Part shown: piece after piece, positions 13,005 to 48,483 of the stretch
Numbering within the stretch: the first letter of the stretch is position 1
How the letters are laid out: each line of letters opens with the position of its first letter
NCBI GenBank assembly: GCA_000004985.1
Contig: GG738885.1
Source of the DNA: Naegleria gruberi
Taxonomy: Eukaryota
Direction: 5' to 3' (one strand)
Length of the DNA stretch: 64,000 bases
Made by a program: the position numbers and the translations under genes
Notes under the pieces: model-generated
Seen by the model: only the letters and a program-made list of their open reading frames with translations
Told to the model about the DNA's origin: nothing
The model's database searches: none

Positions 13005-13457
13005 ATGATTTCTCGGCTGTTCAGAACCTCTAATAACAACATTTTTTCAATAAAAATGAGTAATGAAGAAGTAAAAGATAAATTGGATGAATTGGATCAT
13101 GATTTGTTATCAAATCTTTTACACTTAATAACAGGTTCAAATATGAGTAAAAGTATTCAAGAAACTTTATTTTCAACTCTTTCATATCTTAACGGCAATA
13201 CCAAATTAGATCCTTATTTAAATTATACTAATTTTCATAATTATTTTAATAATAGTGAAATGGATGAAAATATTGAAGTGCTTACTCTAGAGGCCATTGT
13301 GAAAAAGTTCCGAGATGGTAAACAAGCGGATTTTAAAGTAGTAGAATTAAAGTCAATATTAGGTAGATTTGGATTGCCAAAGAGTGGAAAGAAAAGTGAT
13401 CTATTAGATAGACTAAGAGATCATTTAGAACAGAAAGGGCATTTGAATAAACAATAA
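13005..13457 (+). CDS. SAP-domain protein
   Basis: The C-terminal segment LKSILGRFGLPKSGKKSDLLDRLRDHL fits the SAP helix-x-helix consensus (LxxLKVxELRxxLxxRGLxxxGxKxxLIxRL). The ATG at 13005 follows an A/T-rich leader. Confidence 0.55.
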   Translation: MISRLFRTSNNNIFSIKMSNEEVKDKLDELDHDLLSNLLHLITGSNMSKSIQETLFSTLSYLNGNTKLDPYLNYTNFHNYFNNSEMDENIEVLTLEAIVKKFRDGKQADFKVVELKSILGRFGLPKSGKKSDLLDRLRDHLEQKGHLNKQ

Positions 13458-13503: not shown

Positions 13504-15070
13504 ATGGCACCTGATTCTGTTGTATTATATTTGGATTTAATATCCTTTGAATCAGAATTATTAAGTAGTAAAATCAGAGATGTGCCAATGAAGGATAAAT
13601 TTAAATTGATATGGAATCCGATTTATTATTCCTTTGCTTATATAGATGAAGAAGATGTTGCGGAGGATGAACAATTAGAGAGAGAAAAGTTTGACTATCT
13701 CCTGAAGAATATTTACTCGGGTGAATATATGTTTAATTTAATGACCAATGCAGATATTTGGAAGATTGATTTAATTAGAGATCAAACATTTATTATAAAA
13801 CAGCTTACGCAAATATCTTGGGAAAAGTTTGCTGAAATTTCTACTAGATTGAATCTTTGGAAATTGAAATCATTTGCTGAGAAGTTTGTGGAATGTTTAG
13901 GAAGATATGTACTCGTATACATACCTATTGAATTAAGAAGTAATAGAAAGTTTATGTTACATGCTATTAAGCTGGATAGACATGCTCTTGGATTTGCTTC
14001 TGAAGAAATCAGAAATGATAGGGAAATTGTAATGGAATCTGTTAAACAAACTGGATGGGTTCTCAAGCATGCATCTGATGAATTGAAAAGAGACAAAACA
14101 ATTGTTCTTCATGCTGTTAAGCAAAATGGGCATGCACTTCAATTTGCTTCTGAAGAATTGAGAAATGATAGAGAGATTGATGGAGGCGGTTAAGCAGAAT
14201 GGCGGTGCAATAGAATTTACGTCTGATGAGCTAAAGAGAGACAGAGAAATAATAAGTGAGGCTGTTAGAAAAGAGGGAAACGCACTTTTGCTTGCATCTG
14301 AAGAGTTTAGAAAAGACAGAGAATTGCTTATTGAAGCCGTTAAGCAATATGGAAGGGCATTACAATGGGCGCCTAAAGAATTTAAAAATGATAGAGAAAT
14401 TGACTTGTTTGCAGTCAAGGAATATGGATCAGCAATTGACTATACTTCTAGTGAATTGAAATGTGATAGGGAATTTGTTTTACAAGCTGTTAAACTAAAT
14501 GGAATGGCACTTCAATATGTATCTTTTGGATTGAGAAATGATAGAGAAATAGTAATGGAAGCTGTCAAACAAAATGGATGGGCGCTTGAATGTGTATCAA
14601 GAGAATTAAGGAAAGACAGAGAAATTGTTGTCGAGGCTGTTAAACAAAATGGAACTGCTCTTGAATATGCACCAGAAGAATTGAGAAATGACAGGGAAAT
14701 TGTGTTACTAGCTATCAACCAAAATATTTCTTCATTCAAATATGTATCAGATGAATTGAGAAATGACAGAGAAATTGCAATGCTAGCAGTTAAAAAAGAC
14801 GGATATGCCATTGAAAAAACTTCTAGTGAATTGAGAAATGACAGAGAAATTGTCACAGAGGCAGTTAAACAAAACGGACTATTGCTTAGTGAGGCATCAG
14901 AAGAATTGCGAAATGATTGTGAAATTGTATTGCTTGCTTTTAAAAATAATGAGAGTTCACTGGTATATGCATCTGAAGAATTGAAAGCAGATGGAAAATT
15001 CATTCAACTTCTTCGAAGTTATTTATTTGAAAAGCAGCCTTATGAACTTCCAGGTAGATCAAGAAAATAG
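13504..15070 (+). CDS. DUF4116-like tandem-repeat protein with an internal 2-nt frameshift
   Basis: At least 15 consecutive ~30-aa units of the form xAVKQNGxAL[EQ]YASEELRNDREIV are encoded by ~90-nt DNA repeats. The reading frame switches at 14179. Upstream the sequence reads ...NDREI; one stray g follows; then MEAVKQNG continues in the +1 frame. Every other unit has REI-xx-[EHQ]AVKQ, so two nucleotides are missing here. The two halves appear as ORFs 13504..14193 and 14165..15070. Confidence 0.6.
13930..15010 (+). repeat. Coding tandem repeat array, period about 90 nt
   Basis: The string gaattgagaaatgacagagaaatt and near-variants recur about every 90 nt. The reverse-strand ORFs over this region are low-complexity artefacts of the repeat. 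Confidence 0.7.
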
Positions 15071-15134
15071 CTTTCCTGATGCAGTTTATCATGATTACAA
15101 TAATTCAAATCTTGGTTGATCAAGAAGAAAAAAA

Positions 15135-16619
15135 ATGACTTCAGAAATCCCACACCCATTCTCACACTATAATTCAGCACCGGATCTTTTTTTGTCTTCC
15201 TCATCAGGTTATGCTGCTCCATCAACATTGATAAAATTCTCCACAGGAAAACAATATAGGAACATGATGGAAAATTCCTTCCGAGATGTTGTTTGTAAAT
15301 TTAGGGAGTATTCGTTCTTGATCAGAGAAAAATCTTTTTATGATTATTTAAAGCCTGAATTTATGCAACAATATAAAATTGAGAGAAATTTGAGTTTATT
15401 TGTGAGTGAGATTTGGAGCGGAACATCGGCTACGTGTGTTAGGGGAGGATCTGGTTTAAATCCGTATGTTCTTGTTGTGCCAAGATTGGAGTTGGTGGAA
15501 CAGGTGATTAGAGATTATTTGGAATGGTGGAGATCGAATGATTTGTTTAACTCTGTAAAATATTGGAATGATTTTGATATATTTAGAATAGCAGATTCGA
15601 ATACAGATGGAAGAGGTGAATTGAAAAGTGTTTTTGAAATGACGTGTTTTACTTTGGAGGAAGGGGAGTATGTTAAAAACATTTCAGATAAGGGTTATTT
15701 TGAAATGACATTCTTGACTAATTTAGGACATTTTTATCACATTATTCAAGATAGAAATGGTGGGAAGAATATAATTACAAAATCAGCTGAATTATTTACT
15801 GGACTAGCAGTTGGTGGATCATTTTGGATTGGGTGGACAAGTACTAACCTTTTTCTATTTGGACATAATTTTTACATTCATATGCAAAACAGGAAAGCAA
15901 GCATACCTAGTGAAATTCTATCAATTGATGATGTTAGTTGCGGATGGGATAATATATTTATTGTGGCCAATTCTAGGAAAGATGTATTTGGATTTGGCAG
16001 AAATTTTGGGTCTTTTTTCACTCCAAACCACAAACAAACACCAAATATAGTTCAAATTCCACTCGACAAATTAAAACTCCCAGAAGAAACCATTCAAAAG
16101 GTCTCCGCAGCAGATGAAGCAGCTGTAATTTTATTGGATTCTGGAAATTTAATCATTAATAATTATGCACTGAATCGAACTTCTTTTAGTATTTTTTCTA
16201 GTAAATTATGGACTAGAATTGATGCTGCCAAAACTTTGAACAAATTTCAAGACTCGAGAATTATTGATGTTGGAGTTGGAAGATCCAAAATTTCTGTACT
16301 TACTTTCAATCATTGCATTTCAGTGTACTCATTGGATTTTACATTGGAATTTGAAACCAAATTACACATATCCTGTTCCTTAGATTATCCTCTATTTGTT
16401 ATGAATAAGACAAAGATTGTGGATGAAAGCAAGAAAAGAATAGTTCAAGAATCATTTAATCCCTCCCTCATTTTCAACCCAACAATCATACAGGCAGAAG
16501 AGAGTGTTCAAGTATGGTATCATGCTCATAATCCAATCGATTTATTTCAATCAGATTATAGACGAAATATGATTTCCTCTTCACTCCACTTTTCAGATTT
16601 ACAATTCAACTTTGTTTAA
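15135..16619 (+). CDS. Hypothetical protein, possibly an RCC1-like beta-propeller
   Basis: The 494-aa ORF starts on an ATG after an A-run. Repeated glycine-rich turn motifs (GWDNIFIVANSRKDVFGFGRNFG) suggest a propeller fold. There is no confident family assignment. Confidence 0.4.
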   Translation: MTSEIPHPFSHYNSAPDLFLSSSSGYAAPSTLIKFSTGKQYRNMMENSFRDVVCKFREYSFLIREKSFYDYLKPEFMQQYKIERNLSLFVSEIWSGTSATCVRGGSGLNPYVLVVPRLELVEQVIRDYLEWWRSNDLFNSVKYWNDFDIFRIADSNTDGRGELKSVFEMTCFTLEEGEYVKNISDKGYFEMTFLTNLGHFYHIIQDRNGGKNIITKSAELFTGLAVGGSFWIGWTSTNLFLFGHNFYIHMQNRKASIPSEILSIDDVSCGWDNIFIVANSRKDVFGFGRNFGSFFTPNHKQTPNIVQIPLDKLKLPEETIQKVSAADEAAVILLDSGNLIINNYALNRTSFSIFSSKLWTRIDAAKTLNKFQDSRIIDVGVGRSKISVLTFNHCISVYSLDFTLEFETKLHISCSLDYPLFVMNKTKIVDESKKRIVQESFNPSLIFNPTIIQAEESVQVWYHAHNPIDLFQSDYRRNMISSSLHFSDLQFNFV

Positions 16620-16670: not shown

Positions 16671-17540
16671 CTAAAGTAAAAGAGAACAGACAAGAACAGT
16701 GAGAGTTACACCTAAAAGATCCATTACAACTGAAGACATTGGACCAGAGGATATGCCAGCATCGAATTTCAAAACAAAATGAATGAATAGTGGAATGAGT
16801 GCACACACAAATACACTCACAATGACAATCATTATAACACTCAAGGTAAGAGCTATTAATTCTTTCAATAGAGTTGGATTATAAAAGATGGCAATGAATG
16901 GTGACATTCCCATTGCTTCTTGTGGAGTGAGACTGAAAACTCTGTAAATATAAACTCTCAGAAAAGCAATTAATCCAATAGCCAAGCTCAATAGAATACC
17001 AATTCTAAATTCCCTCCACACAACTTGAAAAATATTTGATTTTTTAAATTCACCTGTTGTAATTCTTCTCACAATTTCAATAACTGTTTGTGATCCTGAA
17101 TTGCCTCCTGTTCCTATTAACATGGTTAAAAAAAGGGAAATAATAATATGTTTTTCTATCAGAGATTCAAACTTGGCCAAAATAAAACTAGAAAATGATT
17201 GCAAAATTAATAATAATATCAGCCATATGCCTCTTTTGTATACAATTTTAAATATCGATTGGTCAAAATATTTAACATCCACTTCGGAATTAGTTGAACT
17301 ATTTACATCTGTCTCGGAATTATTTTCATCATTATTTCCAATCAAAGGCTGATTTGATGAATAAATTTCATCATCCTCAAATACTTGAGATTCTAAATCA
17401 ACTTCGCTTTGAACTAACTGACTTTTTTCCTCTCCTATTTGTTCTTCTATTGTAGTGGTAGAGGTAGTGGCTGGAGTAGTACTGTTTGTGTTTTCCGATA
17501 TTGCTGATGATGGAAGATCTTTCAATTCCTTTTCACTCAT
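16671..17540 (-). CDS. MgtE/SLC41-type divalent cation (Mg2+) transporter domain protein
   Basis: The transmembrane domain carries the MgtE signature TGGNSGSQ (LTMLIGTGGNSGSQTVIEIV) and has about five TM helices. The N-terminus is acidic and Ser/Thr-rich. The ATG is at 17540. Confidence 0.6.
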   Translation of the reverse strand: MSEKELKDLPSSAISENTNSTTPATTSTTTIEEQIGEEKSQLVQSEVDLESQVFEDDEIYSSNQPLIGNNDENNSETDVNSSTNSEVDVKYFDQSIFKIVYKRGIWLILLLILQSFSSFILAKFESLIEKHIIISLFLTMLIGTGGNSGSQTVIEIVRRITTGEFKKSNIFQVVWREFRIGILLSLAIGLIAFLRVYIYRVFSLTPQEAMGMSPFIAIFYNPTLLKELIALTLSVIMIVIVSVFVCALIPLFIHFVLKFDAGISSGPMSSVVMDLLGVTLTVLVCSLLL

Positions 17541-17638
17541 TTTTTATTTGATTATTAATATTTTATGATATTTTTAGATGTTTAGAATTATTTTAATATG
17601 AAAATTGGGTCAATTAAGACCAAATGTTTTGTAAGGGT

Positions 17639-20600
17639 TTATTTCCTGTTCTTGCTACTCTTAGCTGGCTTACGATACTCTTCATCATCACTGATTTCTT
17701 CATCTCTCTTTCGTTTTTGATTATCTTCTTCCATGGCTTCATTTTCTAATTCTTCCCATGTTGGAGCATCTTCTTCCTCTTCTTCCTCGAAATCATCATC
17801 GTCTTCATCATCATCTGAATCAATGTACATTTCTTCATCATCGTCATCAACGTCTTCTTCTTCACCTGATGATGGTTCATATTCTTCGGCTCCTTCTTCT
17901 TCTAAATCTTCTTCAACTTGTTCACCACTCATAACGAGGAAAGAGGTCCAACCATTTTCACTGTATGGATCCCAGTTGTCTTCTTCACGAATAGTCTTAA
18001 GAATTGGACCCCACTTCAAAGATTGAGCACCTTCAAAGTATAATACATTGCTGTTTGTTAACCAATCCTTAATCTTATCCAAATGTTCAACTGGTATAGA
18101 TGTTATGGAGTGGTAAGTAGTAAGGTCTTTCAAAATAAATACAATATCAAAGTTCTTCAATCCAAATTTCATTCTTTCAAAGTGAGCAATTTCAACTTCA
18201 TCCATTGTCAACACAAAGAAAGGAGCTTCAGAGAGGGAAACAAGGCAATTTAGAGTTGGTACTAAATTTACATTTGATTTACCAGTAGATGGGACACCAG
18301 TAAATTCTAAATCACGGAATGGAATTTCAAAATCAACGCCTGACTTTTCTTCAACTTTCTTTACAAATGAAGCAAATTCCTTATTCAATTTAATCTTCAA
18401 AAGTTGTTCTCTTTCTTCTTCTTCAATAGCTTCTCTTTCAGAAACAGCTTGTCTTCTGTGTCTACCGACCAAGTGATCAAATTCTTCAATAACTTCAGTA
18501 AAGAATTGAATATCATGGAAGGCCTTCTTACCAATCATAACTGGATTCTTAAGATGGAAGTGAATAAGAACAATAATATCATTCTTGGCTTCTTGGAAGA
18601 AGGCATGTTTGATATTAGAGTACATAATTTCAATCTTAGCACCCTTGTTACTGGAGAATCTCAAACCATTTTCATGAGCTTCAATTACACCAACTTGTTT
18701 CTTACCAGGTCTCATGAAGATATCAGCAAGTCTTGGAGCCTTTTGACCCTTACTAACTAATTTAAGTTTTGGTTGATCAACTTCCTTATTATTTTCATTG
18801 AATTCTCTGTCTCTTTCTTCTTGACCAATTTGTTTCTTCAATTCAAGGATTTCTCTTCTAGCACTTTCCAAACGTTTGGAATCCTTTGCTCTGTATGAAA
18901 TTTCCTTGACAAAGACAAGGTGCTTATACAACTTGGCTGGTTCGTAAACCTTACCAAAGTTGAGTTTAGTATTGTTAAAGTTGATTCTGAGATGTACATA
19001 TTCACCTTCGTCAGTTGTGTTTACGTTCTTAATAGCGGCAATGTGGAATGGAACGTGAGAACCATTAATTGGCAACAAGACAGATCCATGTCTCTTATCG
19101 ACAATGATTTGGTTGGCAACCAATTGAAGATTCTTTGGAATAGGTCCAGTATAACTAACAACTTCACCTTTAGCGAATTTTTCATCAGCTGACAACTTTT
19201 TCTTTCTTGATGAAGTGCTTGAAGATTCATCCTTTCCTTCGTATTCTTCTCTCTTTCTTTGGAGAAGAGATAATTGTCTCTTTCTTCTTTCTTCATCATT
19301 GAGAGTAGAGTCAGATGATTCAACACCTCTAACCAAACCTGAAGCAATAGCAGCACTACGCTTTTGTCTTTGTCCGAATTCTTGATCAATCACTTCTGGT
19401 TCAACCTCTTCAGCTGCTTCTTCATCTTCAATTGAGTAAGATATTTGATTATAGTCAATCTTAATACGAGTCAAAACTTGACATTCTTCACGAACCTCAA
19501 CTTGATCATTTGATCTTGGCATACCATAATCTTCAGTTGAAACTACAACTGTATCAGCAATGAACATAGAATATGGAGCACGACCTGGTTCTGGAACATT
19601 TTCAAATCCTAATTGAACAACAAATGTCATATTATTTGCAATTTCCATCATATTGCCTTCAGCCATTTGCATGATTGGAGAGGAAGGTTGCCATCCTATA
19701 CAGAAACCAACCTTCGTTGTGAAATGTGGAACCAACTCTGGTTTCTTCTTTCTTAAAAATTCCCTAGCAGCAGCATAAATACTATCCATTGTTTGACCAA
19801 CTCTAATCTTCTTTTTGACAAGGAATTGGTAGACATTGTACAAAATTTCGTAATCCATTTCCTTTTCCACACTAGCATTAATGAAATAAGTTCTTGCAAC
19901 CATTGAACAGAATGATTTGTATCTGATACCAAACATTAAAATGATGTTATCAAATTTAAGGATTTTGTCATCTGATTTAACTGATTCGTCATTGAAATCT
20001 AAGTTAAGATTATATCCACCTCCAGATTGAATAATAGGATTAAAAGCTAATGTTAAATCAATTTCTGCAGCAGCTTTTGTCACCATATTTTCAATATTTA
20101 CGGCAAATTGACTGTGTTTGATTTCCTTTCCTTCATCGATAACACCTTCCATATCGGTGACAATTTTCTTGACGAACTTAGTGGTGTATTGTGAAGAAGC
20201 TTTAGCAAGTTGTACTTCTTCTGGCTCTCTTGTACAGAGCAAATCTTGAAGGGCAATCTTGACATCTACAACTTTTTGCTTCTTGAGAGTATCAATATAT
20301 TCCTTGTGTAATGGTCCTGTGTGTTTTTCTCCTTCAATTACACCAATAACAGTATTTGATGAAAGTGAAAGAGTAGCAAAGAAATCGGAAGTTGTTCTCT
20401 TCTTATCCTTTTCAAAGAGTTTGATCTTTCCTGATGTATTTGGAATGTCTTGCAACATTTTAATTTTGTTAGCACTAAAGTTTGATCGTATTCGAATTTT
20501 GTCATGATCTGTTACTTACCTAGTGAAGAAGTGCACAGATTTTGTATGAGGTTCAAAGGAAATAATAGTATCAGTGAATTCGTATCCAATCAGCCACAAG

Positions 20601-20776
20601 AGCATTAATTTGTGTACATCGTAATCGTTCTTTTCTTCTTGATTTACCTTGCCCATAAAAACTTGGAAAATTGTGCAATTATCATATAGAGTATCTTTGT
20701 ATTTGTCAAAGTGGTCAAACAGACGAGCAAGTCGCTTGTTGAATATTTCCCCATCAATTTTATTCTCGTCTGCCAT
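17639..20776 (-). CDS. SPT16: FACT complex subunit SPT16
   Basis: Exon 1 runs from 20776 to 20520 (MADENKIDGEIFNKRLARLFDHF...LLWLIGYEFTDTIISFEPHTKSVHFFT). A 45-nt intron (20475..20519, GTAAGT...CTTTAG) follows. Exon 2 begins SANKIKMLQDIP..., reproducing the conserved Spt16 N-terminal lobe. The remaining 939 aa include the middle and PH-like domains and a long C-terminal acidic tail (DDDDEEMYIDSDDDEDDDD). Confidence 0.9.
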
Positions 20777-20812
20777 TTTTTTTTAATTTTATTTTGTGTC
20801 AAATTTTTGGAA

Positions 20813-20821
20813 GGCGGGAAA
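20813..20821 (-). promoter_or_regulatory. E2F-like element TTTCCCGCC about 40 bp upstream of the SPT16 ATG
   Basis: The reverse complement of ggcgggaaa (context ttttggaaggcgggaaacatt) is a GC island in otherwise AT-rich DNA. This is the classical E2F half-site. Confidence 0.3.
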
Positions 20822-21007
20822 CATTCAAGAACCAATAATTTAGCATCCATCTAGATGCCCCAACTTGATTGAACCTTTTCTTTTTCTTATAGAATTATAA
20901 TATATTATATCTAAAACTAAATTGTTAATTAATACTTGACATTTTTCACATGAATGTTAAATATGATGAAATTAATAACACTAAGCAACTTTGGATCGGA
21001 CAGAGAT

Positions 21008-21016
21008 GCGCGCCAA
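21008..21016 (+). promoter_or_regulatory. GCGCGCCAA element 25-33 bp upstream of the TMEM97 ATG
   Basis: The site atgcgcgccaattc belongs to the same CGCCAA(A) family seen upstream of the TMPK, GH31, RPL14 and IFT56/coiled-coil genes. Confidence 0.25.
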
Positions 21017-21040
21017 TTCACAAAACTTCAAACAAAAAAA

Positions 21041-21602
21041 ATGGCAGTACCAAGCATCTTCTCCAGACCATTGCATTTGATTTTCTTCATCTACTTTTTG
21101 AGTCACATTCCAATCACTATCATGATTGACTCTCAAGTAAGTTTATCACATATGTTGTATCATTATAGTTTAAATAATTATAAAGCCTCTCTTGGTTGAT
21201 AAGATCCCACAACTCTATCCACCAATCATTAAACAAATTTTGAATGATCACTGGTTAGAACCATTCCAAGACAAGTTGATGGTTGTCTTCCCAGTTTGGT
21301 TTGCTAGTTTTACAGTTTGTGAAGTCTTTTTGCAATTCCCATTCTTCTTCTTTGCTTGTTATGCCTTCATTGCTGGTAAGAACTGGATCCGTATTCCATC
21401 AATTATTTATGCCACACACGTTATGACTACACTCGTTCCAATTATGAGTGCCTTCATATTTGATCCTGCTTTCCTTAATCACAATCCAGTCTTGTTGGCT
21501 ACCTATTCTGTCTACTTTATCATTCCACTCTTGTTATTGTTGAATATGGTTCTCTACACTAATCCATTCAATTATGAGGAAAAGAAGATCAAGAAGCAAT
21601 AA
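21041..21602 (+). CDS. TMEM97: TMEM97 / sigma-2 receptor (EXPERA domain) homolog
   Basis: Exon 1 is 21041..21136 (MAVPSIFSRPLHLIFFIYFLSHIPITIMIDSQ). A 67-nt GTAAGT...AG intron (21137..21203) follows. Exon 2 begins IPQLYPP and contains KNWIRIPSIIYATHVMTTLVPIMSAFIFD, ending ...YNYEEKKIKKQ. Together these are collinear with human TMEM97 (YFLSHIPITLFMDLQ ... [30 protein letters not shown] ... YKYEEKRKKK). Confidence 0.85.
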
Positions 21603-21673
21603 TTAGTTGCTTATCCGAATCTTTCAATTTTTAAATCAACACTTTAAATTATTAAAATCAATATTATTAAAAA

Positions 21674-22594
21674 ATGTCTTTCAACAAACCAATAACCATT
21701 CCTTCCAACAATGATTCATCACCACCAATACTAAATCATCAAGTACACAATTATTTTAATAATAATATTAGTGAATCACCGTCACCCACACTATCCGATA
21801 ATAGTTCTTCAAATATTAATACGAGTAATAGTCAATTTATTCTCAATATACGATTTCCACACTCTTCGGAAACTCATCAGTGTATTTTAAAATCAGGATC
21901 TAACACTATAGTGAGTGAATTATTACAAGCCATCAGAGAACAATGTTTGGAAAAGGATAAAACTTTACGATCTAATGAAAATTACTCTCCATCAAAGAGT
22001 ATTCTCAAATTAATTCATCATGGAAGACTACTAACGCCTCCTACATTTCCGATTTCGAGATTTAATATTCAACCTGAAAACTTTATACATTGCACATTTT
22101 CACCCATTCAACAACCTAGTAATAATTCACAACAACATAATACTAGCTCTTCATCAACTGATATTCGACAAGGATTTGACATGTTATTGAATGCTGGTCT
22201 TGCCAGAGAGGAAGTTAATGAAGTGAGGAGACAATTCTATGCAAGTCATTCAAATTTATTGGAATTGCACAGAAGAGGTCAACTCACTCAAAGGGATTTA
22301 TTTGAAATTGAGCAACAGTGGATGCAAAATGATCATGTTCAAACAGAAAACGATCAAAGCAGCTCAATAAGACCAACCAATACAATCATAGATACGAATA
22401 ATGTGGGAAATATTTATCATTTCTTCTGTGGAGTTTTCTTGGGATTCTTCTTGGGATTTGTTGCACTGATAGCTCTTTTGGAAAACTCACTCTCTCGAAG
22501 ATTTCAATTCGGTATAAGATGTGGTGTAACAACAATGGTTCTCTTGTCGATATTCAAGTATTACTTCCCGACACTTCTACCATACATGATGTAA
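21674..22594 (+). CDS. Membrane protein with a ubiquitin-like domain (TMUB/HERPUD-like)
   Basis: The N-terminus is N/S-rich. A UBL-like segment (ILKSGSNTIVSELLQAIREQCL...KLIHHGRLLTPPTFPISRFNI) is followed by a C-terminal hydrophobic hairpin (FFCGVFLGFFLGFVALIALL). Confidence 0.45.
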   Translation: MSFNKPITIPSNNDSSPPILNHQVHNYFNNNISESPSPTLSDNSSSNINTSNSQFILNIRFPHSSETHQCILKSGSNTIVSELLQAIREQCLEKDKTLRSNENYSPSKSILKLIHHGRLLTPPTFPISRFNIQPENFIHCTFSPIQQPSNNSQQHNTSSSSTDIRQGFDMLLNAGLAREEVNEVRRQFYASHSNLLELHRRGQLTQRDLFEIEQQWMQNDHVQTENDQSSSIRPTNTIIDTNNVGNIYHFFCGVFLGFFLGFVALIALLENSLSRRFQFGIRCGVTTMVLLSIFKYYFPTLLPYMM

Positions 22595-22876
22595 ATAATG
22601 TACAGTTCAGTCCTCTAAATTAAATAGTTGTCTAATCCAATAAATTCCACCATCGTACTATCATCACAATAATACAAATAAATAATAATAATTATTATAA
22701 TTTATTTAGAGCAGGAAGGAAAAGACGGAGGTTAAAAAGGGATGAGTTAATGATGTTGTAGATTATTATCCAATTAGTTTTTGTACAAATAAATCCGCGT
22801 CAACTTGTTGTTGTGGTCAACATCATCAAAAATCTAGGTGAATTAATATTCACAATATAAATTATGTAAGAATAAT

Positions 22877-28005: not shown

Positions 28006-30881
28006 TTACCACAAACATTGTTTCAACATGACCAAAATTCGTTTCCATTTTTCATTCTCTTTAGTGTCAGTATTTCTATTCGAATGCATGCCAATAATGT
28101 TTAAGAAAACTTGTTCTAACGAATCTTGATTCAAGGCAAATTCCTCAATTCCATTTCCAACCTTTCCTTCTTCCATGTGTTTGAATAAACCTGAGAGAGA
28201 TTTGATTTCTTCTTCCTCCTCTTCAATGTAAATGTTATTAGAAAGTGATATTGGAAAGTGTGGAATTTTGAAAATTGACATTGTTTCTGATAGAATTAAA
28301 TCCTTTCTTGCTTGTGGAACATACTTGAGCACATATTGTTCAGCCAAACTTTCGAATTGTTTCGGATAACTTATACTCAATACATAACCATCTCCAAACT
28401 TATTTTTCAATCTCAATCCAGATCCCAAACATTTAAATTCACCATTTGACATGATTGTCATCCTATCACACAAAACGTCAGCTTCTTCCATTGAGTGAGT
28501 TGTCAAAATGACAGTTCGATTCTTCTTTTGTTCTAAAATAATGTCCCATAAATGTCTTTTAGAAAGTGGATCTAATCCAGTGGTTGGTTCATCTAAGAGA
28601 ATTACCTTAGGATCTCCTATTAAGGAAATGGCAATTGACAGGCGACGTTTCATGCCTCCTGAGAGTGATTTTGAAGGTGGAGAATTCTTCATCTTGAGAG
28701 TTTCATTATCTAAACCAACTTGTTTCAATAAAGATTGAATGTGTTGTTTTTCATGTTTGATTTTGACAGCTTTCAATCTTGCATAAAATAATAAATGATC
28801 TTCACATGTCAAGTCTGGATATAAAATATCGAACTGAGAGGTCAGACCCATAATCTTGTGAATGGAATCCATTTCTGTACGAATATCTTTACCATATACG
28901 AAAGCAGTTCCAGAGCTAGGTCCAAACATTCCTGACAACATTGAAATAGTTGTTGATTTACCAGCTCCATTCAATCCCAATAAACCAAAGCATTCGGATT
29001 TACCAATTCTTAGACAAATATTGTTGACTGCTGTTTTTGAGTTGAATTTCTTTTCTAGATTAAAGAGAACAACACCAAAATCATTCTTCAACTTTCGAAT
29101 ATGTTCTTCCTGTTGATCTCGAGTAAGATTGGGTGGAGTTACTCGATTATTCTCCTCGGCAACATCTGAATCTATTGTTGCTATTTGATTTTCTTCATCT
29201 ATTGTTGGTTTTACTCTCTTTCCAGAGATTCGTTTCTTTAGAATATTTCTAAAAGGTTTCCATAACCAATTCATAAAGAAAAGTGGACTCTTTGACACGC
29301 CAAATGGTTGGGGAATGACAGCATCTAAATACAATCCAAGAATCATGTATACTAAACTCATTCCCAACATGTAAATCAACGAATAGAATACTGAGCTATT
29401 GTTGTAAATATCGACAAAGTTGGTGATGCAACCATTGCCAGAATTACACGCAGCTGTGGTAGCATATACGAAATGAGTGATTTGGAATGGAAAGATTGTC
29501 AAGATACCATATTTGGACTCTGGAACATTCGTATAAAGTGACGAATCTAGAATTACGCCAACCATTGGTCCAATAAGAACAATCAGATAGGAAACTATTG
29601 TGGCTACAATAGTAGTCCCAATACATGAAGATAATAAGAATGAGAAACTAATCAGCAAATTTCCCCACAATAAGAAAAATATAACTATTAGAAAGTTAGG
29701 AAACAAACATCTTTCCAACAACAATACTTACTCAAAATTATTGGGTTCGTCTTGGTAACAAAGCTGAAATTAAAGAGTGCAGAGAATATTATAAACATTA
29801 CAACTGAAATTGCATACATTCCATAAAAGAACATATACGAAACAAGAAAGTAATATCTCATCTTCATTCCCATAAGTTTCATCATTTCACGCAACTTGAA
29901 CTGCTTTTCCATGACAATTGTAAACGTAAAAGAAGGCAACAGCAAACATAATATCATTGGGAAAAACAATGAACCCAACAAATCCGAAATGTTAGCCGAA
30001 GGAAAACTAATGGTATAACTCATTTGAGATGTATAGGTTCTGATATTGTATCTACCAGTAATATTCTTCAAAAAGGCGTCATTCATCCAATGTTGCATGG
30101 AAACTCCCATTACATTTCTGCAACTTGTGATTACAAAGCTGATTGGAATGGTTTTGGACAAGTAGTCACAGAAAAGTGACTTTTCATTGGAATCGTATTG
30201 GATTGTGTAGTTTAAAATAGCTCTGGTTGATGTTGTCAATTGATTAATGATATAACCACCGACAGCATCAAGAGCATGTTTGGATTTTCCATCAGATGCC
30301 AATTTTTCATAAATGACATTTTCCATTTCTGTGCTATTGTTGAATGATGAGACAGAGTATGGAATTGATATCATACCAGTTGTTTCAAAAGTACCATTCA
30401 CTTGCATGGATGGAATTTTTCTTGAAAACGGACTGAAATCTTTCAAGAATCCATTCGAAACTCCAAACTTTGAAGAAAGTTGCCCAAAATTAATATTGTC
30501 CAGATAGTCCCTTCTATTGGAAGAAAAATAAATTGATTCTGGAGGATTGAAAGTCAAGTTTTGTGAATTCTTCACTTGAACCATCAGTTGAGATAGCTCA
30601 ACTGAGGTTGAGTTGACTTTCGTATTTGCCAAACCTTGTTCAGAAAGAAAATTATTGGTCAAATCTTTAGTAACCACTTGTAACAAGAATATAAACACCA
30701 AACAAATGACTGGAAAGAACAATAGACAGCAGTTGGACCTTCGTATTGATAATTCGAAACAATTCGAAAGAAACACTTACTTTTTCTGTTTCATTTGCAA
30801 TGAGAATGACTTGAAGAGTAAACCCCTAACTTGACTCAAATCTTTGGACAAGTTAGTGTCCATTATCAAGTCACTGTTCAT
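28006..30881 (-). CDS. ABC transporter, A subfamily half-transporter (TMD-NBD), three exons
   Basis: Exon 1 is 30881..30781 (MNSDLIMDTNLSKDLSQVRGLLFKSFSLQMKQK). A 42-nt intron (30739..30780) follows. Exon 2 runs 30738..29732 and begins KSNCCLLFFPVICLVFIFLL. The junction reproduces the ABCA N-terminus ([30 protein letters not shown]). A 47-nt intron (29685..29731) precedes exon 3 (29684..28006), which encodes the NBD with Walker A (LLGLNGAGKSTT), the signature (LSGGMKRRLSIAISLIG) and Walker B (ILLDEPTTGLDP). Confidence 0.85.
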
Positions 30882-31133: not shown

Positions 31134-33870
31134 ATGAAATATCTTGTTGAGGTGTTGAAACAAACACTTGTATTACTCAAGAAGAATGCCTTGCTATATG
31201 TAAGTGTTTCTTTATAGTTTCGTCTGACATGTAATTATTCCAAAGACAAGAAGATGGAAGTCCACATGTTTACAACTCGCTTCGCCAATCATTATTCTTG
31301 CCATCTTACTCATCATGTCTCTAATCATGGAAGTAAACTTTGACAAATCAATTCTTACTCAACCAACAAGAAATATTCATGAAATTGAAATTCCAAGAGA
31401 AGGAAATTCTAAAAAGTTACAATTCTATGAATGTAAAGCAGCACCTAATGTTCCATGCTACAAGATAGTCTACACATCTGATGGAATTTCATTTGGAGAA
31501 ACTGTCATGAGTCAACTTGTGTCAGATTATCAATTAAAACTTGACAAGGACTTTAAGAATTTCACATCTGTAAAAGAAATGGAAGCATGGATGTTTAGCC
31601 ACCAGAATGAAACAATGTTTGGTCTTGCGTTCATACCAAACTCCATTTTGGATACAGTTGATACTTTATCTTACACACTTTACTATAATAGGTCAAGAGA
31701 GGAATTACATTTTCCATTGTTGAGTTTACAAAACATAATTGATAACAATATAATCTATTTAAGAATGAAAGAGTTGAATAGAACTCAAGATTTGATGGAT
31801 TCTAGATACTCTGTCCAAGTTGACTATAAGAGTTTTCCTCAACCATTGACAACCAAAGATGGACAAACTTTAGTTTTCAAAATTTCAGGCCCAACCTTCT
31901 TCAGCATATCCGCAATGTTTATTTTAATTGTTTCTTTGAATAATTTGGTGGTTGAAAAAGAGTTTCGTCTCAGATTTTCAATGATCATGATGGGAATGAA
32001 AGAATCGGCATATTTCCTTTCATGGTTAATCACATTTTTAGTGATTAGTTTAGTTTTTGCTTTGGTGAATGTGTTGGGTGGAATGATCTTTCAAATGTCC
32101 ATATTTTTGAATGCAAATTTTGTTGTTTTGTTTCTTTTATTCTTTAGTTTCTCATTTTCACTTATTTGCCTTTCATTCTTTCTGTCAACTTTTATTAAGG
32201 AATCAAGAAATGCATTAATTCTTGGATTTACAGTTTTGGCTATATCATTTGTAAGTTCTCAATATTTTTTGTAATTTATAATATTGGAGAAAGATATTGA
32301 ACTTGACAGTTTCGAATGGAGGAATTGTTTATCTTCTCTATTCAGACAAAATTTCTCCCTTCTTCTATATCATCTTCTCATTCTATCCACCATTTAATTT
32401 TGCAAAGGTTTTCATTGATATTGCTTCTAAAACCTTACCTGAATACGATTCTGCACTGAGAAGATTTGTTAGTGGTCCTGGTTACTCTTTTACAGATTTT
32501 TTTGTTGGAAAGAACTCTTATGATTATGTACCTGCTTCTTGGATTGGAGTTGGTCTCTTGTTCCTAGACGGTTTGTTCTTTCTAATCCTGTATTGGTATT
32601 GTGACAATGTCATTTCTGATGGAAACGGTATTCGAAAGTCACCAATCTTTTTTCTCTATCCTTCCTATTGGGGAATTCAATGCTTTCGTTCAAAGGAACA
32701 CAAAGCACCATCAGATGATAACATTACCTTCTCCAAATTTGAAACAGATGATGTCAAGGTAGAATTTAAAAGAGCAAGAGATTGGAGTCAACCAGCAATT
32801 GTTAGAATCATTTCATTAAGGAAAACATTTTCTGGCTTTTTTTCAAGAATTGCACACAAAATACTTCCTCAAAAGTATGCTGACAAATTTTCAGAGAAGA
32901 AAGCACTCAAAGAGTTGAATCTTGTTGTGAGGGATAATGAATGTGTCAGTTTGTTAGGGCATAATGGAGCTGGCAAGTCAACTACAATGAATATTTTGAC
33001 AGGTTTGTTTGAGCAATCACATGGTGAGGCATATGTTTCTGATTTAGATGTTAAAACTTCCATTTCTGCTGTTAGAAAACAGCTTGGCATTTGTCCTCAA
33101 CATGACATTTTGTGGGATGATTTGACAGCTGAAGAACATTTGGAATTATTTGGAGATTTGAAAGGAATTCCAAGAAAAGAATGTAAAGAGCAAGTTAAAT
33201 CGTTATTAGATTCTGTCGAGCTGTCAAAAGTTGGACATCATTTGACAAAGACTTATTCTGGTGGAATGAAGAGAAGATTATCCATCTGTATTGCATGTAT
33301 TGGAAATCCTAAATTGATTCTTCTCGATGAACCAACAACTGGATTAGTAAGTAAGCTCTTCAATTATTCATTTACCAACTCTATTCGAAATAGGATCCCT
33401 ATTCAAGAAAGAAAGCTTGGAATTTAATTCACAACATGAAAAAAGGAAGAGCCATGATTTTGACAACACATGCAATGGATGAGGCTGATTATCTTTCGGA
33501 TAGAATTGCAATCATGGCCAATGGTGAGTTGAAATGTATTGGAACCTCACTTTCAATCAAATCTCAATATGGAAGTGGTTACAACTTGATGGTTGTGGCC
33601 AATTCAGGTCACGAAGATAGTATTCTCACATTAATCCAACATAAAGTTAAAGATCTCAAGGTTGTGAGTGAAAATGCTGGAAATTTCATATTTAACATTC
33701 CAAAGCATCAAGTGAGTGAACTTTCTGATTTGATTTCAGAAATGGAAAAGCAATCATCTAGAATAGATGGTATCATTAAGGATTGGGGAATTTCTCAAAC
33801 CACATTAGAAGAGGTCTACTTGAAAGTTACTCAAAAGTCAGAGTTTTCCTTTTCCAAAAACAAAACCTGA
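31134..33870 (+). CDS. ABC transporter, A subfamily half-transporter (TMD-NBD), four exons; divergent paralog of the upstream gene
   Basis: Exon 1 is 31134..31199 (MKYLVEVLKQTLVLLKKNALLY). A 46-nt intron (31200..31245) follows. Exon 2 (31246..32250) begins TRRWKSTCLQLASPIIILAILL. An approximately 43-nt intron precedes exon 3 (about 32294..33346), which encodes Walker A (LLGHNGAGKSTT) and the signature (YSGGMKRRLSICIACIG). A 47-nt intron (33347..33393) precedes exon 4 (33394..33870), which encodes DPYSRKKAWNLIHNMKKGRAMILTTHAMDEAD. Confidence 0.85.
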
Positions 33871-47080: not shown

Positions 47081-48483
47081 ATGAAGAGAAAATTAAACAA
47101 TAATTCCTCCTCACTGAGTAGTCTTTCGGAAGGCTATAGAAGTGATGATGAAAGTAGTCAGAATGCAATTGATGAGGAAAAGCCATCAAAAAAGTTAGCA
47201 ACCTCATCTTCACCAACAACTAATGACAATCATCACACAGATGGTGAAGAAAAGGATTTAACCAACAAGACAGTTATTATAGAAAAAAGTAATGATAATG
47301 ATTTTACATCAATACCTTCGGAAGAATTTGATATTGAACAAATTACAGGTTTTTCTGCATGTTCAACAGTGGAAAATTACGAGTTTTTAAATAATATTGG
47401 AAGTGGAACATTTGGTGTTGTGAGTCGAGGAAAATGTAAAGAAACAGGAGAGATTGTAGCTTTAAAGAGAATTAAATTAATGAAGGAATTTACTAGTAAG
47501 GAGGGATTTCCATTGACAGCACTTCGTGAAATGAATACACTTCTCCAGATGAGACATGAAAATTTAGTTTGTGCTAGAGAGGTTGTATGTGGATCTGATT
47601 TAAACAAAGTCTTTATTGTTATGGATTATATGGATCATACTTTGAAGGATGTTCTTGATAGATATAGCTTTAGTATGAGTGAATGTAAAAGATTAATGAT
47701 ACAATTATTATTAGGATTGCAATATATGCATGAGGATTGTTGGTTAATTCATCGTGACTTGAAGACTTCTAATATTTTGATGGATAATAAGGGATCTTTA
47801 AAGATTTGTGACTATGGTCTTACGAGAAAATATGGTTCTCCAATTAGAGATAATTATACTCCAGTTGTGGTGACACTTTGGTATAGAGGTGAGTTTTTTA
47901 TTATGTTTTAAATATGTTGATGAAATAATTTCAAGCACCTGAACTCTTATTGGGAGCTAAGAAATATTCGACACCAATTGATATGTGGAGTGTTGGATGT
48001 ATATTTTATGAAATAATTACTGGTGAATATTTATTTACATCTGACAGTGAAATTGGTCAAATGAAGAAAATATTTGAAGTTTTAGGAAAGCCAACAGAAT
48101 CAGAATATCCTGGATTTTCACAACTTCCAGCAATTAAGAAATTTAAATGGGATATTAGTAATGTGAAAGGAAGAGCTCAATTAATTAGACTTTTAAAAAC
48201 TCAATATCAACTCTCTGATCAAGGATGTGATCTTTTCAATAGATTATTATGTTTTGATCCAGAATCTAGAATTACAGCAAGGGAAGCACTTGCCCATCCA
48301 TTCTTCAAAGAAGCACCTCTTCCACAAACTAAGGAAAATATGCCGACATTCCCATCTGTACAAACAATTGACAGCTCAAAGAGAAAATCAACAAGAGAAT
48401 CTGGAAGAGATGAAGAACAAGTAGTTCAACACTCGAGAGCTAATGAATTGGAGAAGGAATTTAATAGATTCATGACGGAATAA
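47081..48483 (+). CDS. Cyclin-dependent kinase, CDK11/CDK10 (PITSLRE)-like, two exons
   Basis: The N-terminal extension is S/D/E-rich. Kinase subdomains include GSGTFGVV, the cyclin-binding helix PLTALREMNTLL, HRDLKTSN and DYGL. Exon 1 ends at 47888 (..TLWYR + G). A 47-nt GTGAGT...TCAAG intron (47889..47935) follows, and exon 2 restores WYRAPELLLG. Confidence 0.85.

Follow-up and report, generated by a model that had tools for sequence, protein, structure and literature searches.

DUF4116 proteins are widespread, with homologues in Naegleria, dinoflagellates and bacteria, and earlier contact-based modelling of the family arrived at an alpha-solenoid (PMC8078820). Here we describe a member from the Naegleria gruberi NEG-M reference, in which a two-nucleotide frameshift divides a tandem array between two open reading frames, ORF1 and ORF2. 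Both ORFs carry the 25-residue unit with the family signature AVKQNGxAL..AS.EL+.D+EIV. The copy differs from other DUF4116 proteins in being broken by the frameshift and in its N-terminal domain, which has no Pfam family and occurs, so far, in this protein and one N. gruberi paralogue.

The locus also resembles young frameshift pseudogenes in expanded families. It shares with them a single small indel relative to an intact ancestor, frames that are otherwise open, divergence at a noncoding-like level, a sister strain with a lesion of its own and a large family of paralogues; it differs in that pN/pS is still below 1, while its lesion is that of a reference assembly and its loss of expression is presumed. 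Programmed +1 frameshift sites, such as those of antizyme, Ty1 and Euplotes (AAA-UAA), are a second point of comparison, as ORF2 lies in the +1 frame and overlaps ORF1 by 29 nt, but no shift-prone codon or stop context is present where the register changes here. As in phase-variable contingency loci with slipped-strand changes, one copy of a tandem dinucleotide has been lost (TGTG to TG); however, with only two copies this is not a hypermutable tract, Tandem Repeats Finder (TRF) reported no simple repeat at the deletion site, and we rejected a contingency-repeat reading from the sequence and from the related strain described below.

The DUF4116 array and its frameshift

The window analysed is a 64,000-nt stretch of the NEG-M reference (assembly GCA_000004985.1, contig GG738885.1), comprising gene-dense eukaryotic DNA of 33% GC. 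The ORF listing exactly reproduced the coordinates of the two ORFs given by the first-pass annotation (Table 1). The frameshift is present both in the reference assembly and in the reference annotation, where the locus is represented by two proteins: EFC41493.1 / XP_002674237.1 (NAEGRDRAFT_70649) is identical to ORF1, while EFC41494.1 / XP_002674238.1 (761 aa) takes an ATG at 14180 (MEAVKQ...) inside ORF2 as its start.

Table 1. Features of the DUF4116 locus and of other parts of the window used for comparison (window coordinates).
Feature	Coordinates	Strand	Description
SAP-domain ORF, upstream	13005..13457		150 aa
ORF1	13504..14193	+	229 aa; N-terminal domain, DUF4116 units 1-3, out-of-frame tail DGGG and stop
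N-terminal non-repeat domain	13504..13950	+	about 149 aa; no Pfam family
DUF4116 array	13951..14998	+	14 units of 75 nt / 25 aa; register perfect except unit 4
ORF2	14165..15070	+	301 aa, +1 frame; DUF4116 units 4-14, short C-terminal tail
2-nt deletion	14177..14180	+	start of unit 4; exact placement ambiguous within 14177-14180
Premature TAA stop, ORF1 frame	14191..14193	+	four codons (DGGG) past the frameshift
5-nt deletion (GAATT) in the related strain (L001)	14321..14325	+	frame-breaking; 145 nt downstream of the window's site
Intron assumed by the reference model	15054..15207	+	GTAGAT...TCATCAG, 154 nt; joins ORF2 to the next ORF, giving the 761-aa EFC41494.1
Downstream ORF	15135..16619	+	494 aa, own ATG at 15135; RCC1-like signal below the Pfam cut-off
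6-nt in-frame indel	17457..17462	minus	low-complexity N-terminal region of the MgtE-like gene 16671..17540
Clear short intron	20459..20514		approximate coordinates
Clear short intron	29672..29726	minus	approximate coordinates
Clear short intron	32250..32296		approximate coordinates
Clear short intron	47890..47934		approximate coordinates

A profile search with PF13475 matched both ORFs, bearing out the DUF4116 family call. ORF1 matched in three stretches (E 2.5e-38, 129.8 bits) and ORF2 in nine (E 6.4e-165, 535.1 bits), both far above the membership threshold, which was the Pfam gathering cut-off of 24.9 bits. A 301-codon open frame with a 535-bit Pfam match in DNA of 33% GC rules out a chance origin for ORF2. 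The unit consensus is IVxEAVKQNGxALxYASEELRNDRE. An initial estimate of 30 aa (90 nt) for the repeat unit was too long, since the register of the 14 units and the TRF period of 75 within the array both give 25 aa (75 nt). At the DNA level the units share a mean identity of 63% (maximum 77%), and their longest common word is 22 nt.

Register analysis of the 14 units upheld the frameshift originally proposed for this gene, revealing a single length anomaly: the array is 2 nt short after the ATT at 14176-14178, with the repeat continuing in another frame. The site reads AGA GAG ATT g ATG GAG GCG GTT AAG, or REI + g + MEAVKQ. In ORF1 the repeat runs to ...NDREI and then into DGGG and the stop codon, while it resumes in the +1 frame. 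By comparison with a related strain, the lesion is the loss of one TG (or GT) of TGTG, containing a Val codon GTG. When this Val codon is restored, the junction peptide matches profile positions 8-49 of PF13475 across the break (E 6e-36, 122.2 bits), whereas the actual tail of ORF1 matches only as far as REI, at profile position 29.

An AlphaFold2 model of 14180..15067, built with 28 homologues, has a pLDDT of 95.4 and a pTM of 0.85, and shows ORF2 as an all-alpha solenoid in which every 25-aa unit contributes three short helices, in agreement with the alpha-solenoid modelled earlier for the family. A fold search with this solenoid against the PDB found no match at E <= 0.001, returning just generic designed or ARM/HEAT-like helical repeats; the DUF4116 fold is, on this modelling, confidently predicted yet appears to be without a solved representative. 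The frameshift sits at a unit boundary, and three of the 14 solenoid turns stay with the N-terminal domain.

The minus strand, antisense to the array, also holds two ORFs (13957..14418, 153 aa; 14512..15003, 163 aa), which are probably shadow ORFs arising from the biased codon composition of the repeat and not genes.

Paralogous copies had been suggested as a comparison for this gene, and one of them, P0021 of N. gruberi, has the matching architecture unbroken: a homologous N-terminal domain (BLASTP E 3e-16, 31% identity) followed by DUF4116 repeats in a single uninterrupted ORF of 630 aa. A word-indexed homologue search with the N-terminal domain alone matched only ORF1's own protein. A scan of JGI metagenomes with the N-terminal domain and first repeats found no further close relative; its matches were distant DUF4116 loci, at <=61% identity and in the repeat part only.

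The locus in a closely related strain

Clustering at 90% identity groups ORF1 with a single further protein, P0122, which is encoded on a 1563-nt ENA metagenome contig (ERZ929261 k127_519127, here locus L001). ERZ929261 is an ENA sample labelled 'metagenome' (run ERR1078381, project PRJEB11402). L001 aligns to window 13514..14571 at 98.1% identity; being a metagenome assembly contig, it may contain errors of its own. A second contig of the same sample, L015, matches window 17408..22665 at 99.3% identity, and its 939-aa SPT16 is the same protein as the window's; the strain compared is therefore a very close N. gruberi relative, and the locus the same. These contigs were reached via P0122 and SPT16 only. 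Exact-sequence look-ups of encoding contigs for ORF1, ORF2, the upstream SAP-domain ORF, the 494-aa downstream ORF, P0001 and P0121 returned none on record, and a literature search found no mention of the gene identifiers or of the ENA project.

At the frameshift site L001 reads ATTGTGATG where the window has ATTGATG, aligning as GAGATTGTGATGGAG against GAGATT--GATGGAG. The related strain is therefore read in a single frame across the site (...NDREIVMEAVKHNGG...), its GTG giving ...NDREIVMEAVK.... Val is also the residue at position 2 of most other units in the array, and together with the GTG of L001 this identifies the state in the window as derived. That the ancestor had a single ORF follows from the contiguity of L001 at this site and from the single-ORF architecture of P0021.

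The related strain has a frameshift of its own in the same gene, a 5-nt deletion (Table 1), after which its ORF ends in ...KDRAY and a stop and resumes in the +1 frame; at this position the window keeps the ancestral RELLIEAVKQ. About 1 kb of the gene thus holds two independent frame-breaking indels, one per strain, whereas 4546 nt of neighbouring coding sequence holds one indel only, of 6 nt and in frame. In the neighbouring sequence compared, all small out-of-frame indels between the strains lie within the 712 nt of noncoding DNA. Substitutions show the same contrast. The SNP density of the gene (13/1047) is 3.8 times that of the neighbouring coding DNA (15/4546; Fisher p = 0.0007) and is no different from that of noncoding DNA (6/712; p = 0.49). 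In indels and in substitutions alike, the DUF4116 gene appears to behave like unconstrained DNA.

Between the strains pN/pS is 0.29, calculated from just 13 changes (seven nonsynonymous and six synonymous; binomial p = 0.028), and although the counts are small this suggests some purifying selection over the divergence of the strains. Taken together with the otherwise open halves of the gene, the ratio implies that any loss of function is very recent, or that the gene is functional and the reference wrong.

Larger differences between the strains are found towards the 5' end of the locus. L001 has about 140 nt extra at the 5' end of ORF1 (window ~13514..13516 against L001 372..508), and its N-terminus, MNQSHHDHHPVVLYLDL..., resembles that of P0021 more than does the window's MAPDSVVLYLDL. 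The window may have undergone a second, 5' deletion here, using an upstream in-frame ATG by happenstance. Further upstream, L001 lacks (at ~215) 272 nt from the middle of the SAP-domain gene, corresponding to window 13089..13360, between AGATAAATTGGAT and AGATTTGGAT microhomology. As this loss would frameshift the SAP-domain gene, that gene also looks dispensable or decayed in the relative.

Accounts of the frameshift

We consider it probable that the 2-bp deletion recorded in the window is genuine and recent, and that it struck a dispensable gene of a large family, leaving a young pseudogene or truncated allele. The ancestral locus was one gene of about 522 codons (13504..15070), encoding the N-terminal domain and 14 DUF4116 repeats that would fold as a continuous alpha-solenoid; with a real splice to the following ORF, as annotated, it may have extended further. 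In the NEG-M lineage, one TG of ATT-GTG-ATG would have been lost at the start of unit 4 in a small local event resembling replication slippage. Ribosomes initiating at the original start codon would then leave the repeat frame after ...NDREI and, through DGGG, reach the stop at 14191-14193, so that the product would now be a 229-aa fragment with three repeats only. The remaining eleven, in the +1 frame, would have no obvious route to translation, and ORF2 is presumably unexpressed. As one of a large and redundant family in Naegleria, and probably under weak constraint beforehand, the gene would have tolerated such a lesion.

The first-pass annotation had likewise raised a recent pseudogenising slip, within a DNA repeat. 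Recent pseudogenisation fits best with the frameshift of the relative, the noncoding-like SNP density and the in-frame neighbours; a slip between repeat units is implausible, since at their mean identity of 63% the units are too divergent and the length would change by multiples of 75 nt. When the consensus of a Sanger assembly has an indel error, a single base is usually involved, which mildly favours a real 2-nt event. Against a pseudogene, the two missing nucleotides are the only flaw: each half is otherwise fully open, with its register intact.

This same integrity is what a base-calling or consensus error would predict, in which case NEG-M would truly read ATTGTGATG, the ORF of ~522 codons would be intact and the two annotated proteins would be artefacts caused by two nucleotides dropped from the draft. 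That draft was assembled from Sanger reads, and still in 2023 only one assembly of the N. gruberi genome was being used; the closest available relative carries the two bases, no second lesion is present in the 14 units, and the pN/pS of 0.29 suggests that the gene was recently under selection. Other features of the locus weigh the other way. The relative has its own frameshift in the DUF4116 gene, and other disruptive indels separate the strains where ORF1 has its 5' end and, further upstream, in the SAP-domain gene, indicating a locus that tolerates damage; the SNP density of the gene equals that of noncoding DNA. The 4.5 kb of adjacent coding sequence has no frame-breaking discrepancy, which argues that the assembly is locally accurate, and the site is neither a homopolymer nor a long simple repeat. 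An error of this kind is accordingly unlikely, though still a serious contender. Misassembly or collapse driven by the array, to which the first reading of the sequence had also pointed, was rejected outright, given units no more than 77% identical and an anomaly of 2 nt where changes in multiples of 75 nt would be expected.

A real deletion might instead have produced two genes, the arrangement that the reference annotation suggests, with both halves expressed as a 229-aa protein and a solenoid starting from the ATG at 14165 or 14180, the second perhaps joined by splicing to the RCC1-like ORF downstream, as EFC41494.1 has it. The Met of the VMEAVKQ unit directly after the break is a start codon and is the one used by the reference annotation, ORF2 is open for 301 codons, and ORF2 alone models as a well-formed solenoid. 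However, an open frame is expected after any recent frameshift (by our estimate, less than one new stop at about 1-3% divergence), the relative is broken elsewhere, so the two-gene arrangement is not conserved, and GTAGAT is an atypical donor for the intron assumed to link ORF2 with the ORF that follows. We regard gene fission as improbable, and slightly more so the specific case of a fission caught in the act, with a three-repeat gene beside an 11-repeat solenoid that starts from the repeat's own Met and is perhaps spliced to the RCC1-like ORF. A homologue search with the 494-aa ORF found only the reference fusion protein, the relative's copy not being recovered, and the fusion of ORF2 with this ORF in EFC41494.1 may be an artefact of annotation. 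P0011 also brings RCC1 and DUF4116 together but was rejected as support for the fusion, its domains being in reverse order and its source organism unrelated.

Restoration of the frame by programmed +1 ribosomal frameshifting, a spliceosomal intron or RNA editing is very improbable. The lesions of both strains put the downstream part in the +1 frame, but such a shared outcome is a coincidence with a probability of one half, and the window's frameshift is absent at the site in the 98%-identical relative and so is not a conserved signal. AUU GAU GGA corresponds to no known shift-prone motif, whether of the antizyme, Ty or Euplotes type; it allows no +1 re-pairing of the tRNA, and the stop in this frame is four codons away, in a GGU UAA G context. 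With neither a recognised motif at the shift point nor conservation in the relative, we rejected a programmed frameshift. For an intron, an open product could result from 114 GT..AG pairs of length 3n+1, a few of which keep the repeat register (e.g. 14189..14336). Every candidate would nevertheless cut out conserved codons of the repeat, and splicing at 14189..14336 would leave the relative out of frame. The candidate donors are GTTAAG, GTTCTT or GTAATG, of which GTTAAG is simply the Val-Lys codons (GTT AAG) of the repeat. As a local standard for the appearance of Naegleria introns we took the clear introns of the window, which split SPT16 (N-lobe exon), two ABC-transporter genes and a protein-kinase gene (Table 1); they are about 40-60 nt long with GTAAGT or GTGAGT donors. 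None of the 114 pairs resembles a real intron, and a spliceosomal intron across the site was rejected.

Consequences for the reference proteins and the family

The finding is an ordinary one: a gene of a redundant family that has most likely been pseudogenised by a recent mutation, a base-calling error being the less likely cause. Its value lies mainly in the curation of reference proteins; it opens no new biological question. A single frameshifted DUF4116 gene is the best interpretation of XP_002674237.1 (229 aa) and XP_002674238.1 (761 aa), each a fragment of it, and the latter protein may also be mis-fused to an unrelated downstream ORF. The strain in ERZ929261, at 98-99.3% identity to NEG-M, could act as a second genome against which reference annotations are checked.

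If the two halves were after all expressed as separate genes, the different break in the sister strain would hint that Naegleria DUF4116 arrays are repeatedly cut and re-used. As a probable young pseudogene, the locus offers a small example of turnover in the large Naegleria DUF4116 family, with independent lesions in strains that differ by about 1%.
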